IMG/VR virus record: IMGVR_UViG_2563366843_000007
Origin: a virus
Taxonomy: Duplodnaviria; Heunggongvirae; Uroviricota; Caudoviricetes
Strand: one strand, 5' to 3'
Length of the DNA stretch: 32,971 nucleotides
This document shows, piece after piece, positions 4,540-12,147 of the stretch. Below the pieces are notes generated by a model, which worked only from the letters and a program-made list of their open reading frames with translations, ran no database searches and was not told the DNA's origin. The position numbers and the translations under genes are program-made. How positions within the stretch are numbered: position 1 is the first letter of the stretch; every line of letters starts with the position of its first letter.

Positions 4540-4597
4540 AAAAAGGGCGGCAGAGCAGTCACGGAGTAAAACTGATACCGCCAAACGTCACCAGAAA
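4540..4597 (-). ncRNA. dicF: DicF small regulatory RNA (ftsZ-targeting sRNA) with intrinsic terminator
   Basis: Minus-strand sequence UUUCUGGUGACGUUUGGCGGUAUCAGUUUUACUCCGUGACUGCUCUGCCGCCCUUUUU matches the DicF sRNA as I recall it, including the GGCGG/CCGCC terminator stem and U-tail; sits directly upstream of dicB. Confidence 0.8.
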
Positions 4598-4931
4598 ATT
4601 GATAACAGAGGGCGTTGCAGCGGGGTTGTCACTTAAGCGTATGGTCAACCTGACAACCCGGTGTCCTCAACGGGGGAAGGAATAACCCCGCCATACTTAC
4701 CGCCGCGCCATTTCGCGGATTGCCACAACCGGAAGCGCACGGTCGACGAAAATTTAACGACAGGCTATCTATGAACCAGCTACCTCGCCGTGCGCTTTCG
4801 CGTTATGGTCTGACTTTTCAGGGAAATATCCTTTCAGTAAACTGTCAGTGCCGGATGTTCACCCGTGTCCGGCGCACGCACTCCACCTCACCCGTGGAGA
4901 ACTCCTTAATTACCAACCCTCAGGAGGGTGA

Positions 4932-5165
4932 ATGTTAAAATCAACTCTTATTGCTAAATGCCTTTATCAAAATCGCATGGTAAGCAGCATTTCAATAGGC
5001 GAGTCTGCAGTTAAAAGTATTTTCGAAGAGTACTTCCCCGGGCATGATTTTAATAAATGGAATACCAAATTACCGCCAGCAGTTTCAACGCGTATTCTGA
5101 AAGCAACTGAAAGAGCAAGTACAATTCGCGTTAACTATTTCATTAAAGATTTGTGGGATCTTTGA
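4932..5165 (+). CDS. Hypothetical protein (77 aa), AT-rich, no recognisable motif
   Basis: ATG preceded by AGGAGGG at 5-nt spacing; ~38% GC; convergent with and overlapping the 3' end of the 135-aa minus-strand gene by 23 bp. Could instead be antisense to that gene's 3' UTR. Confidence 0.4.
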   Translation: MLKSTLIAKCLYQNRMVSSISIGESAVKSIFEEYFPGHDFNKWNTKLPPAVSTRILKATERASTIRVNYFIKDLWDL

Positions 5166-5550
5166 CATCCACAGAGCCTAAAGTATGTGCATATGGATGT
5201 GCTATTGTGCGCCCTCGCAGATTTGCATCATTTTCTAAATTCACTGAACGAAACAGGGCATCAACAAGGCTCTGTACAATGCAAAGGCAATCGAAGACTG
5301 TCGCTGTTTCTGTTTTGATTGATGAAAGAACATGGCCATTCACGCAAACAGAAATTACCCGTTCATTAACATCGCTTTCCTGCTTTTGATTATCAGAACC
5401 ATATAGCCCAGAAAAAGCATTGCGCACATTACGAACCATATTATCGATGGTTTCTTTTTTGGTGTATGCCGGGTCAATTTTCACCAGACTATCACCGAGA
5501 GTCGTTGCAGCAATTGTCTGGATTTCTTTTGGTAAATCTTTAAATTCCAT
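5143..5550 (-). CDS. Hypothetical protein (135 aa), AT-rich moron gene
   Basis: ATG with GAGG 6 nt upstream, immediately downstream of the ydfC-like gene; ~40% GC against a markedly more GC-rich left flank; no recognisable family motif. Confidence 0.55.
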   Translation of the reverse strand: MEFKDLPKEIQTIAATTLGDSLVKIDPAYTKKETIDNMVRNVRNAFSGLYGSDNQKQESDVNERVISVCVNGHVLSSIKTETATVFDCLCIVQSLVDALFRSVNLENDANLRGRTIAHPYAHTLGSVDVKDPTNL

Positions 5551-5572
5551 TATTAGCCTCGTTGGTTAGCTA

Positions 5573-9210: not shown

Positions 9211-9473
9211 GCGAATCAAAATGTCAGGTTAATGGCAATCAGATAGAACCATGTGCGGCACTGGCAAAAGCCCTTGAGCATGATGCTGAATACACGACGC
9301 GAAAAGGTCTGCTGATATACAAAATCTGGAATGAGAATTTAACTCGCGCCCCTGATTTGGTGATGTTGCGTTCCGGTGAATTTTCTAAATCACCTATTCG
9401 AGTCTCATTTTGCCCGTTCTGTGGTGAAAGTCTGAAAACATGGAAAAAGGAGACAACCAGTGAGCAAGATTGA
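9207..9473 (+). CDS. Hypothetical protein (88 aa) with putative Cys4 zinc-ribbon
   Basis: GTG start with AGGAGG at 7-nt spacing, overlapping the upstream stop; Cys pairs CQVNGNQIEPC and CPFCG. Confidence 0.45.
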   Translation: MSESKCQVNGNQIEPCAALAKALEHDAEYTTRKGLLIYKIWNENLTRAPDLVMLRSGEFSKSPIRVSFCPFCGESLKTWKKETTSEQD

Positions 9474-9984
9474 CTATCAGGCACTGCGTGGGGCGGCAGA
9501 AGCAATAAAAATAGCAGCCACACCACAAAAATTTCTGGCATTTCGTATGAAAGCCACACCTCAGGTTGTGCTGGAACTGCTGGATGAACTGGAAATTAAA
9601 AGCAAACGAATTAACGAGTTAATCAAGGGGGGGGAAAACGCCAAATACGTGACAGAAATTTTCCGACTTGAGAAAGAACGCATGACGCTGGCGGCGGAGA
9701 ATGCGCGGCTGAATAAATTTATCGTACAGAGTTGCTATGTGTTTAATGGCGAGCAGGATGAAATATCTGATGCGTATATCTGCGCAACAGACGGAGGTAT
9801 GCCGCAAACCCAGGCTACAGATGCTTTCCTGGCTGATGTACGGGCGGTGGCGTTTAACGAGCTTCGCGCGGCGTTTGTCAGGCACGCAAAAGTTGCAGGA
9901 CTGGATGATGCCGATACCGTAACGCTTAAGGAAGTGACAGAAGCATTATTGCATTGTGCGGAACAGATTCGCGCGCCTGAATAA
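9460..9984 (+). CDS. Ead/Ea22-like protein
   Basis: 174-aa ORF, GTG start with AGGAG Shine-Dalgarno; charged helix-rich sequence typical of lambdoid early-region Ea22-like proteins. Confidence 0.45.
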   Translation: MSKIDYQALRGAAEAIKIAATPQKFLAFRMKATPQVVLELLDELEIKSKRINELIKGGENAKYVTEIFRLEKERMTLAAENARLNKFIVQSCYVFNGEQDEISDAYICATDGGMPQTQATDAFLADVRAVAFNELRAAFVRHAKVAGLDDADTVTLKEVTEALLHCAEQIRAPE

Positions 9985-10078
9985 TTAAATTTAGTGTTGT
10001 AAATAAAATTTAATCCTTAACCGGAGGGATTCCTTCACCCTCAAATCATCAGGAGGCCGCCCGAAAGGGCGGTAATGA

Positions 10079-10664: not shown

Positions 10665-11260
10665 CCACTTTTACCAATAGCAAACTAACAGACGAATACG
10701 TTTCAAATGCAACGTTGATTCGGCTCATTCTGTGGGCTGACCAGCACAATAGTCATTATGTTGCAGCGGCTCTGCGCGAGCTACAGGAGCGCCGCAAGGC
10801 TGATAGTGTGCCTGTAGAAATCAACGACGACATGGCTTACGCATTCCATCGCGCACTGTCAGATTCATCGCCAGGTGCTGATGAGGTAGAGGAAATTAAG
10901 GCCGGGTTGCGTGCAGCCTTTGCCAATGTCACCACCCAACCAGCACCAGTAGTGCCGGAATTTGAAACATGGTTTAACAGCCAGGAGTCAGGGAGGAGTA
11001 TATGCAGCACACAGATTCGTCGTTCCCTTCAGGAAATTTCATGGAACGCCTGCTGCGCCGCCATGCTTCAGGGGAAAGGCGATGGTATCCTCACCAATGA
11101 GGATACCAAAGGGGACGTTCAGGTACGGGAATTAACAATGCTGATTAAACAACTGGTTAGCCAATTGAGGAAAGCGAAGCCGGACTGCAAATTACCGGAG
11201 AAGGCGATGGTCTACCTGAAGCGAAACGGACTGATAAGCGCGGAGGATATTTTACGATGA
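10661..11260 (+). CDS. Hypothetical protein (199 aa), lambdoid early-region family
   Basis: ATG overlaps the HNH stop (ATGA); no catalytic motifs recognised. Confidence 0.55.
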   Translation: MTTFTNSKLTDEYVSNATLIRLILWADQHNSHYVAAALRELQERRKADSVPVEINDDMAYAFHRALSDSSPGADEVEEIKAGLRAAFANVTTQPAPVVPEFETWFNSQESGRSICSTQIRRSLQEISWNACCAAMLQGKGDGILTNEDTKGDVQVRELTMLIKQLVSQLRKAKPDCKLPEKAMVYLKRNGLISAEDILR

Positions 11261-11340
11261 CCTGGCCTGAAGCATTCACAACGGTAGGAATTGCACTGGC
11301 GGTGGCGCTGGTTGTGTATTCGATTTGCCGTTGGGGATAA
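11257..11340 (+). CDS. Putative 27-aa hydrophobic peptide
   Basis: MTWPEAFTTVGIALAVALVVYSICRWG; ATG overlaps the upstream stop (ATGA); single predicted transmembrane helix. Below the ORF track cutoff. Confidence 0.3.
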   Translation: MTWPEAFTTVGIALAVALVVYSICRWG

Positions 11341-11551
11341 AAACGGTTTGCGGGAAAAGGAGAGTTAAGTAGAATTGCAGCGGGTGCTTGAGGCTATCTG
11401 TCTCAGGCATGAACACCAAAAGGCAGATAGAGAAAAGCCCCAGTTAACATTACGCGTCCGGCAAGACGCTTAACATTAATCTGAGGCTCAATCTATGAAC
11501 GGCAAATCTAGGTTAGCCTCTTACGTGCCGAAAGGCAAGGAGAAGCAGGCT
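11341..11551. promoter_or_regulatory. hok mRNA leader region (possible mok-like upstream start and antisense Sok-like RNA)
   Basis: Structured leader upstream of hok; an in-frame upstream ATG at 11495 with GAGG; inverted repeat CTATCTG...CAGATAG at 11395-11439. Confidence 0.35.
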
Positions 11552-11707
11552 ATGAAGCAGCAAAAGGCGATGTTAATCGCCCTGATCGTCATCTGTTTAA
11601 CCGTCATAGTGACGGCACTGGTAACGAGGAAAGACCTCTGCGAGGTACGAATCCGAACCGGCCAGACGGAGGTCGCTGTCTTCACAGCTTACGAACCTGA
11701 GGAGTAA
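11552..11707 (+). CDS. hokD: Hok/Gef-family type I toxin (HokD/RelF-like)
   Basis: 51-aa product MKQQKAMLIALIVICLTVIVTALVTRKDLCEVRIRTGQTEVAVFTAYEPEE, typical Hok transmembrane and periplasmic domains, essentially as I recall RelF/HokD; AAGGAG Shine-Dalgarno. Confidence 0.8.
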   Translation: MKQQKAMLIALIVICLTVIVTALVTRKDLCEVRIRTGQTEVAVFTAYEPEE

Positions 11708-11776
11708 GAGACCCGGCGGGGGAGAAATCCCTCGCCACCCCTGATGTGTCAGGCATCCTCAATGCACCCGCACTTA

Positions 11777-11804
11777 ACCCGCTTCGGCGGGTTTTGTTTT
11801 TTCT
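11777..11804 (+). terminator. Rho-independent terminator at the 3' end of the hok transcript
   Basis: ACCCGC-UUCG-GCGGGU hairpin followed by UUUUGUUUUUU. Confidence 0.65.
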
Positions 11805-11874
11805 GAGCATCCTGGTTTACAATCCACATGCCAGCCTGAACAACTGGCACCTGCTGCGCCAGCAGAGATAGCAG

Positions 11875-12147
11875 ATGGCGCACAAAACCAAATTTCACAA
11901 ATCTGATACCGACCTTACCATCCGGCACGGGCGGCGTTCACGCGCATTTAAAACCGACTGGTTCCAGCATGACCCCTGCACTGAAGAACAGGCCGAATGG
12001 CTGATTCAGAACTACCGCAGACGTGGCTATGAGTTTCAGAAAGACCTCAGTCTTGACTTCCGACACTGGATAATTTCCGTCAGGCTCCCCTATTCCGAAC
12101 GCCCACCACGCCCGTCCCGCACATTCCAGCAACGCATCTGGAGGTAA
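11875..12147 (+). CDS. Hypothetical Arg-rich protein (90 aa)
   Basis: ORF between hok and the DUF968 gene; weak Shine-Dalgarno; its 3' end carries the Shine-Dalgarno of the next gene. Confidence 0.35.
   Translation: MAHKTKFHKSDTDLTIRHGRRSRAFKTDWFQHDPCTEEQAEWLIQNYRRRGYEFQKDLSLDFRHWIISVRLPYSERPPRPSRTFQQRIWR

Follow-up and report, generated by a model that had tools for sequence, protein, structure and literature searches.

We find that positions 11347-11803 of the window hold, with a probability of roughly 85%, a complete and apparently functional hok/mok/sok type I cassette that carries the hokD allele, belongs to the hokW/sokW lineage and resides in a lambdoid prophage beside ompW. The window is the whole stretch of DNA that was analysed, 32,971 nucleotides from IMG/VR virus record IMGVR_UViG_2563366843_000007. 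Every checkable sequence element of the cassette is intact and none is disrupted, as judged from its fold, from an alignment of 39 loci and from comparison with phage 933W. Judging from its sequence, the cassette is probably active. The cassette is already known and apparently intact, and it is ordinary in its reading frame, its context and its distribution. A preliminary description had bounded the locus at 11341-11804, and this interval is a good bracket of the transcription unit, which runs from a -35 hexamer at about 11347 to the end of a T-run at 11803.

The toxin gene, hok, occupies positions 11552-11707 on the plus strand, with its ATG at 11552 and its TAA at 11705-11707. Translation of this open reading frame gives a 51-aa product, MKQQKAMLIALIVICLTVIVTALVTRKDLCEVRIRTGQTEVAVFTAYEPEE. 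The product matches HOK_GEF in Pfam (PF01848; E = 1.2e-23), spanning the full 42-position profile, and PHROG 251, 'MokW-like host killing' (E = 2.8e-33). When the window was searched by tblastn with K-12 HokD, 51 of 51 residues aligned at 100% identity, and the same protein (RefSeq WP_000813254.1) is annotated in K-12 KLY and at the twin locus of E. coli 52F4, which has 100% identity to the window over 11341-11810. The preliminary description had recognised the toxin as HokD/RelF, and these matches confirm the assignment. The Pfam, PHROG, Rfam and HokD matches of the locus are far beyond chance. In K-12, overexpression of HokD/RelF is toxic.

A Shine-Dalgarno sequence for hok, AAGGAG (11537-11542, plus strand), can be read 9 nt 5' of ATG 11552. 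It is kept as CAAGGAG in the 39-locus alignment and is present in K-12 too, where homology runs from 11538. Towards the 3' end of hok, the Tyr47 codon TAC (11690-11692, plus strand) lies within an invariant TTACGAA motif, and columns T309-A314 around this codon do not vary in the 39-locus alignment. The codon is likely a site of A-to-I recoding by TadA, which would act on A11691 and change Tyr to Cys. In K-12, hokD mRNA is reported to be edited at a level of 6% at the position-46-equivalent cysteine (PMC12214031).

The window starts at a prophage integrase, and in large blocks it is 99.3-99.96% identical to the prophage adjoining ompW in E. coli 52F4. From left to right, its first genes are int, xis, exo, dicB, the DicF sRNA (4545-4596) and ydfB/ydfC-like genes. 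These are followed by a LexA-family repressor, cro/cI, ydaT, replication genes, an HNH gene, a 199-aa ORF and the hok cassette. To the right of the cassette lie a 90-aa ORF, DUF968 (ydfU-like) and RusA, and then lysis, terminase, portal, capsid and tail genes that resemble lambdoid phage records. The rest of the window presents a full lambdoid structural gene set. The proposed placement in a nin-like region was correct: the replication genes, the HNH gene and the 199-aa ORF are on one side of the cassette and DUF968 and RusA are on the other. Phage vB_EcoS-640R1 (ON470612) carries the same cassette, at 97% identity, between replication protein O and YdfU/RusA/Q.

The cassette sits where 535 bp separate the flanking ORFs. 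Copies found in other contexts are homologous to the window from about 11360-11374 to about 11780-11795. Because homology is bounded in this way, we regard the cassette as a discrete module, complete with a promoter and a terminator of its own. A 27-aa ORF at 11257-11340 was considered as a further part of the cassette and rejected, since only ~24 of 123 copies carry it. The toxin gene had also been described as lacking an adjacent relBE. This is accurate for the window as a whole: a tblastn search of all 33 kb with K-12 RelB and RelE gave no match (best E = 1.1).

A putative hok promoter lies at 11347-11375 on the plus strand and consists of a weak -35 (TTTGCG, 11347-11352), a 17-bp spacer and a -10 (TAGAAT, 11370-11375). 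The placement of the -10 predicts a transcript start at G11382. The TAGAAT hexamer is kept in nearly all of 100 distinct phage copies, including those with an unrelated upstream flank. A consensus sigma-70 scan of 11200-11900 on both strands flagged neither the hok nor the sok promoter, because each has a weak -35 or -10 and is a poor match to the consensus. We rejected the blank scan as proof that promoters are absent, as both are homologous to mapped or validated promoters.

The predicted full-length mok-hok mRNA is ~422 nt long (11382-11803, plus strand) and runs from position 1 of the Rfam model to the terminator T-run. The Rfam family RF01794, 'sok', matches 11382-11557 on the plus strand over the full model, with 112.4 bits against a gathering score of 59 (E = 4.8e-25). 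The match is on the sense strand and spans the mRNA from its 5' end as far as the ATG of hok; therefore, RF01794 models the leader and not the antisense RNA. For the same reason, the match was rejected as direct proof of an antisense gene. Within the leader, a Shine-Dalgarno sequence for mok, GAGG (11483-11486, plus strand), can be read 8 nt 5' of an ATG at 11495. Its positions, G102-G105, are invariant across the 39-locus alignment, and the mok ATG is conserved there too.

We placed the antisense RNA by transferring coordinates from the annotated sokW of phage 933W. The predicted Sok RNA is 71 nt long (11433-11503, minus strand) and spans both the mok Shine-Dalgarno and the mok ATG. It comprises a 14-nt single-stranded 5' tail, a long hairpin and a U-tail, with a predicted folding energy of -29.9 kcal/mol (z = -4.9), and none of 200 shuffles folded as well. 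The sok promoter (11510-11538, minus strand) has a -35 TTGCCT at 11533-11538, a 17-bp spacer, a -10 TAACCT at 11510-11515 and its +1 at 11503. This stretch is identical between the window and 933W. Mutation of AGGTTA, which equals the minus-strand -10 TAACCT, unleashed HokW toxicity in an earlier study (pro-less construct, primer YO-421; Takada et al. 2021, PMC8621323). In that construct, the -10 reads GAGCCG. Because the -10 in the window is the very hexamer mutated in that study, we infer that the sok promoter of the window is functional. The expectation that the leader encodes a Sok-type antisense RNA is therefore upheld by homology to sokW, which has been both annotated and experimentally tested.

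The translational activator, tac, is GGGTGCTTGAGGC (11382-11394, plus strand) and was identified by its conservation and by its pairing with the fold-back inhibitory element, fbi. The latter is CCTCAATGCACCC (11757-11769, plus strand) and pairs with 11382-11393. The entropy of tac is zero over 100 distinct copies. The tac-fbi duplex has a predicted energy of -21.5 kcal/mol, and an equivalent duplex occurs in the same place in ~40 loci. A second partner for tac, at 11400-11408 on the plus strand, would form an alternative 5' hairpin (fold, z = -4.3). The anti-Shine-Dalgarno element ucb, AAGCCCC (11435-11441, plus strand), sequesters the mok Shine-Dalgarno and pairs with 11483-11488 in the predicted full-length fold.

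The Sok target, sokT, is a stem-loop at 11442-11482 on the plus strand. According to the Rfam alignment, it contains a 16-nt GC-rich insertion at its tip (11454-11469) that is typical of the hokD/hokW clade; the insertion occurs in hokD/W-type loci and is absent from hokC-type, Photorhabdus and R1 loci. Downstream of hok, the fold contains a 3' stem-loop of 9 bp with a GAAA loop (11715-11736, plus strand). Its position matches that of the R1 stem-loop, and it is presumed to be the point at which 3' exonucleolytic processing stops. A terminator scan identified an intrinsic terminator-like hairpin followed by a T-run (11776-11803, plus strand), which is kept in most hokD-type copies and replaced in 933W. 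Alignment with the hok/sok and hokD loci had been suggested in the preliminary description; we read the elements of the window against an R1-type hok/sok locus, 933W and the 39-locus alignment.

In the minimum-free-energy fold of 11382-11803, tac and fbi close the 5' end against the 3' end, and the mok Shine-Dalgarno is buried against the anti-Shine-Dalgarno. The same 5'-3' closure, with the mok Shine-Dalgarno likewise sequestered, appears in the minimum-free-energy fold of an R1-type control (L003). We then considered covariation by projecting the window fold onto 39 loci. The set covers E. coli, Shigella, E. albertii, other Escherichia, Kluyvera, Pseudocitrobacter, Citrobacter, Photorhabdus and Pantoea, and it also takes in 933W, a Rac-like phage and an IncFII plasmid. 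Across the 39 loci, 86.2% of cells were paired, compared to 38-44% when partners were slid by 1-3 columns. We observed 37 double-changed pairs as against 21.3 ± 2.5 after shuffling, and 0 of 500 shuffles matched the observed values.

Individual helices showed the same kind of change. Helix 1, formed by tac and fbi, was 89.7% paired across the 39 loci, and in 12 sequences both partners of a pair had changed, from UA to CG. Covariation was also seen in helix 4 of sokT, and helices 16 and 17 of the 3' stem-loop were 94-98% paired with compensatory changes. When the 3'-truncated RNA was folded with ViennaRNA, the open tac/ucb conformer had an energy of -134.8 kcal/mol, which is 2.5 higher than the minimum of -137.3 kcal/mol; it was thus not the predicted optimum, and for the R1-type control the open form was not the predicted optimum either. 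The open conformer of the truncated RNA does form the expected SD/dcb pairing.

In the phage database, 110 records carry the hok cassette, and the best annotated is that of the Stx2 phage 933W (AF125520). Its annotation lists a 213-nt mokW in frame with hokW, a 156-nt hokW and a 71-nt 'SokW antisense RNA'. The 933W locus has ~92-93% nucleotide identity to the window over 11257-11779 and 93.2% over the core, 11341-11779. The hok -10, tac, the sokT hairpin with its 16-nt tip, the sok -35 and -10 and the hok Shine-Dalgarno are identical. Both loci have a 70-codon mok in frame, a 71-nt Sok and a 51-aa Hok.

The window departs from hokW in five respects. In the 5' hairpin a pair has changed with compensation, and the changes in the 3' stem-loop are compensated too; the other differences lie in the Sok-tail patch, at the C-terminus of Hok and in the terminator. 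At the Sok 5' tail, where mok codons 2-5 lie, 8 of 12 positions differ. The C-terminus reads TAYEPEE in the HokD of the window and VDYESEK in HokW. Homology between the window and 933W stops at 11779, and the terminators differ. The two cassettes also differ in location: that of the window lies in the nin region and is co-directional with the early-right genes, whereas that of 933W belongs to a leftward group near the right end.

From the homology with R1 hok/sok and Sp5 hokW/sokW, we infer the transcription, processing, toxicity and biological role of the cassette along with the following mechanism. A weak constitutive promoter would produce a ~420-nt mRNA in which tac pairs with fbi while ucb sequesters the mok ribosome-binding site. 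Because of this pairing and sequestration, the full-length mRNA is proposed to be neither translated nor bound by Sok. Slow 3' trimming to the stem-loop at 11715-11736 would remove fbi, and the 5' end could then refold and expose the mok Shine-Dalgarno and the Sok target. While the sok promoter is active, the unstable 71-nt Sok would pair over the mok Shine-Dalgarno and start codon, and the duplex would be destroyed. When the supply of Sok ends, mok would be translated, the hok start would be opened, and the Hok produced would depolarise the inner membrane. Induction of the prophage, a shut-off of transcription or the loss of the element could act as the trigger.

In the Sakai prophage Sp5, HokW is toxic and its 51-aa ORF alone suffices for toxicity (Takada et al. 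2021, PMC8621323). Expression of sokW from its own promoter neutralises HokW, and both RNAs are seen on Northern blots (PMC8621323). Treatment with mitomycin C makes sokW disappear and HokW build up in the inner membrane in a RecA-dependent manner, and deletion of the hokW/sokW locus delays growth arrest and halves phage release (PMC8621323). The cassette in the window most likely plays the same role as hokW: once the prophage is induced, the membrane would be damaged sooner and phage release would improve. The induction-linked behaviour of hokW may not transfer to the window, since 933W hokW is located outside the nin region.

Phage exclusion or prophage stabilisation is also a possible role, and such a defence or addiction function and an aid to lysis are not mutually exclusive. 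That the main role is abortive infection, superinfection exclusion or prophage-stabilising addiction, and not assistance to the phage's own lysis, seems to us rather unlikely. The proposed mechanism would respond to any transcription shut-off, consistent with such a function. However, PADLOC models gave no match for Hok, the 70-aa ORF or either neighbouring ORF, and hok is not enriched beside defence systems. Moreover, hokW is the one near-identical phage copy to have been tested directly, and it showed a pro-phage role in release.

We consider it improbable that the cassette is a silent relic, one that looks intact, is effectively never expressed and hitch-hikes on the prophage. The weak consensus matches of the hok and sok promoters would suit such a relic. 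So would earlier tests of chromosomal hokA, hokB and hokC, in which neither post-segregational killing nor activation by rifampicin was found (summarised in bioRxiv 10.1101/2025.08.07.668861). However, the absence of any disrupted element argues against a relic, and both expression and a phenotype have been shown for hokW/sokW, which is 93% identical (PMC8621323). Given that tac is invariant in the 100 copies and that compensatory changes occur among the 39 loci, selection on the RNA structure appears to be ongoing.

The mok reading frame (11495-11707, plus strand; ORF list) has 70 codons. Its ATG at 11495 is 57 nt (19 codons) 5' of the hok ATG in the same frame, and the ORF continues through the hok start to a common stop. 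The preliminary description had rightly noted this in-frame ATG but had called the arrangement unusual. It is not: mok is in frame in 89 of 108 phage copies and in 933W mokW. The 108 comprise phage and prophage copies taken from IMG/VR and other loci; mok starts 57 nt ahead of hok in 89 of them, while 12 have an offset of 56 nt and 7 one of 58 nt. The offset is mostly 57 nt in hokC-type and Photorhabdus loci and 58 nt in Kluyvera loci. MN652886, the copy of a Rac-like phage with 94% identity to the window, has mok annotated out of frame; in the R1-type IncFII plasmid copy (L003), mok is in frame. The mok of the R1 prototype is out of frame, with 70 codons and a stop 4 nt before the hok stop.

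Because the frame varies among close relatives and codons 2-5 are the most variable, these data suggest that it is the translation of mok that is conserved and not its product. This reading is consistent with R1, where mok translation rather than its product matters (PMC9841398). With mok in frame, ribosomes that initiate at mok would make a 70-aa, N-terminally extended Hok. Least probable of all, in our view, is that this single long Hok from 11495 is the real product, with no coupling of leader peptide and toxin and with 'mok' a misnomer: ATG 11495 is in frame and has its own Shine-Dalgarno, the in-frame offset dominates (89 of 108 copies) and some phage records annotate only a 213-nt CDS, 'host killer protein', but the 19-codon extension includes mok codons 2-5, where the transcript varies most, and is out of frame (56 or 58 nt) in 19 of 108 copies and is thus not conserved as protein, a strong and conserved AAGGAG precedes ATG 11552, K-12 hokD keeps only the start equivalent to ATG 11552, and the 51-aa ORF of HokW is toxic by itself (PMC8621323).

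A hypervariable patch at 11488-11509 (plus strand) takes in the spacer between the mok Shine-Dalgarno and ATG, mok codons 2-5 and the 5' tail and start region of Sok. Per-position variation was measured on an alignment of 100 distinct copies. Positions 11498-11509 are the most variable 12-nt run in the transcript, ranking 1 of 378. Their entropy is 0.95 bit, compared to 0.28 at the third-codon positions of hok, and their pairwise divergence is 37.5%, compared to 7.7% in the rest of the transcript. Among 108 copies we counted 18 Sok-tail alleles. The allele of the window, ATGAACGGCAAATCTAG, is found in 14 of the 108 and is therefore no private lesion. Another allele, TCTCACAAATG, is distinct from those of the window and of 933W.

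It is possible, though less likely than not, that 11488-11509 is a specificity code under diversifying selection, with each of the 2-8 cassettes that reside together in an E. coli genome answering only its own Sok. If this is true, a prophage that is induced or lost would set off no toxin but its own. Alternatively, the patch may reflect relaxed constraint on a leader peptide of indifferent sequence. Of the cassette pairs within the same genome, 1 of 10 shared a Sok-tail allele where chance predicts 0.11 per pair, and only 10 pairs were available.

The order of elements in the window is shared with the hok/mok/sok (parB) locus of R1/IncF: tac, ucb, sokT, the mok Shine-Dalgarno and ATG, a convergent sok promoter inside mok, the hok Shine-Dalgarno, hok, the 3' stem-loop and fbi. 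The R1-type locus also shares the long-range 5'-3' closure of the fold. In contrast, the Hok proteins are highly diverged; according to Takada et al. 2021 (PMC8621323), HokW and R1 Hok are 44% identical. In addition, sokT is 16 nt longer in the window, and the carrier of R1 is a plasmid and not a phage. The hokC (gef)/mokC/sokC locus resembles the window in having a Hok that is ~80% identical, a mok that is mostly in frame at a 57-nt offset, the same tac sequence and a tac-fbi pairing. It differs in that it is without the 16-nt hairpin-tip insertion and occupies a fixed chromosomal site adjoining nhaA, not a prophage.

The relB-relE-hokD (relF) locus of the K-12 Qin prophage encodes an identical Hok protein and has 98.5% identity to the window over 11538-11801. 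It retains the hok Shine-Dalgarno, the CDS, the 3' stem-loop, an orphaned fbi and the terminator. Homology of K-12 to the window starts only at 11538, which is 14 nt 5' of the hok ATG; therefore, K-12 has lost the hok promoter, tac, ucb, sokT, mok and sok. In K-12, relBE occupies the place of the lost leader, whereas the window has the full leader and no relBE. Both have the same kind of downstream neighbour, DUF968/ydfU. In K-12, rem is inserted downstream of hokD, and homology resumes at 11858.

The preliminary description had treated the K-12 arrangement as the reference state, a view that the distribution of the two forms contradicts. Of 5426 complete E. coli genomes, 1165 have the relE-hokD junction and 4139 (76%) have the full leader, scored as present where 80% or more of 11382-11560 was covered. 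The full leader is present at a median of 2 places per genome and a maximum of 8. In 3920 of the 5426 genomes, coverage of the entire 470-nt unit reaches 80% or more, and 361 genome records match the full leader allele of the window at 99% identity or better. In our interpretation, the arrangement seen in the window is the ancestral one and that of K-12 is derived.

Much of this locus was known already. RefSeq annotates hokD, and AF125520 annotates mokW/hokW/sokW of 933W, the phage homologue that was put to experimental test in 2021. A survey of how hok is enriched in prophages dates from 2025-26. Our analysis is corrective in three respects. The textbook relBE-hokD of K-12 is a truncated minority form. 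The common form is the full cassette, equipped with a promoter, mok and sok of its own, which is found in 76% of complete E. coli genomes and often in multiple copies. Finally, a mok that is in frame is normal for the hokD/hokW clade. Natural E. coli isolates are expected to carry several intact cassettes per genome, which is relevant to prophage induction, lysis timing and persistence through membrane depolarisation.

A hypervariable patch at 11488-11509 overlaps the 5' single-stranded tail and start site of Sok, the predicted antisense RNA, as well as codons 2-5 of mok. Across the 108 phage copies compared, the patch occurs as 18 alleles, and pairwise divergence reaches 37.5% within it compared to 7.7% in the rest of the transcript. 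The cassette surrounding the patch is otherwise strongly conserved. The patch may be a determinant of Sok/hok specificity.

TadA has been reported to catalyze A-to-I recoding (Tyr to Cys) in the hokC, hokD and hokE mRNAs of K-12, with hokD recoded at 6% (PMC12214031). In the window, the Tyr47 codon of hok (TAC, 11690-11692, plus strand; target base A11691) lies within a TTACGAA motif that shows no variation in 39 of 39 aligned hok loci, the R1-type copy among them. On sequence grounds, A11691 is likely the same kind of site and is a candidate for recoding.

Two small open reading frames adjoin or overlap the cassette. Upstream, an unannotated ORF on the plus strand (11257-11340) encodes a hydrophobic peptide of 27 aa, MTWPEAFTTVGIALAVALVVYSICRWG, and its start overlaps the stop of a 199-aa ORF via ATGA. 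Homology to the hokW locus of the Stx2 phage 933W starts precisely at the ATG of the 27-aa ORF, which is found in approximately 24 of 123 phage copies and is intact in 23 of those. No family match was found for this peptide. At the other end, a 59-aa minus-strand ORF (11749-11928) overlaps the hok terminator and is listed as hypothetical in RefSeq; a homologous, shorter ORF in phage vB_EcoS-640R1 (ON470612) is labelled "mobile element protein". The 59-aa ORF is probably a spurious call across the fbi and terminator region.

Several hok records bear the names of other hosts. Tiny contigs (275-431 nt) assigned to Acinetobacter idrijaensis and Xanthomonas pisi carry HokD sequences that share 96-100% identity with the E. 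coli one, and a 2995-nt contig attributed to a Candidatus Scatousia MAG has such a sequence at its end; a 97.4%-identical cassette is found in "Actinobacillus phage vB_Apl-pPE4". These records most likely reflect contamination or mislabelling rather than true host range.

The DicF sRNA gene (4545-4596, minus strand; full-length Rfam RF00039 match, 76.7 bits) adjoins dicB/ydfB/ydfC-like genes, and the ompW prophage therefore has a Qin/Kim-type dicB-DicF cell-division-inhibition module. The twin prophage of E. coli 52F4 lacks approximately 630 bp (4919-5552) and also departs from the window at 9444-10007 and beyond 13554, whereas it is 99.3-99.96% identical elsewhere.

The hok terminator (11776-11803, plus strand) lies inside the early-right operon, upstream of the DUF968, RusA and Q-like genes. 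Delayed-early phage transcription has to read through this terminator and also meets the sok promoter head-on. Although the idea is not transferable to 933W, because its cassette is located elsewhere, such head-on early transcription could hypothetically lower Sok output upon induction.
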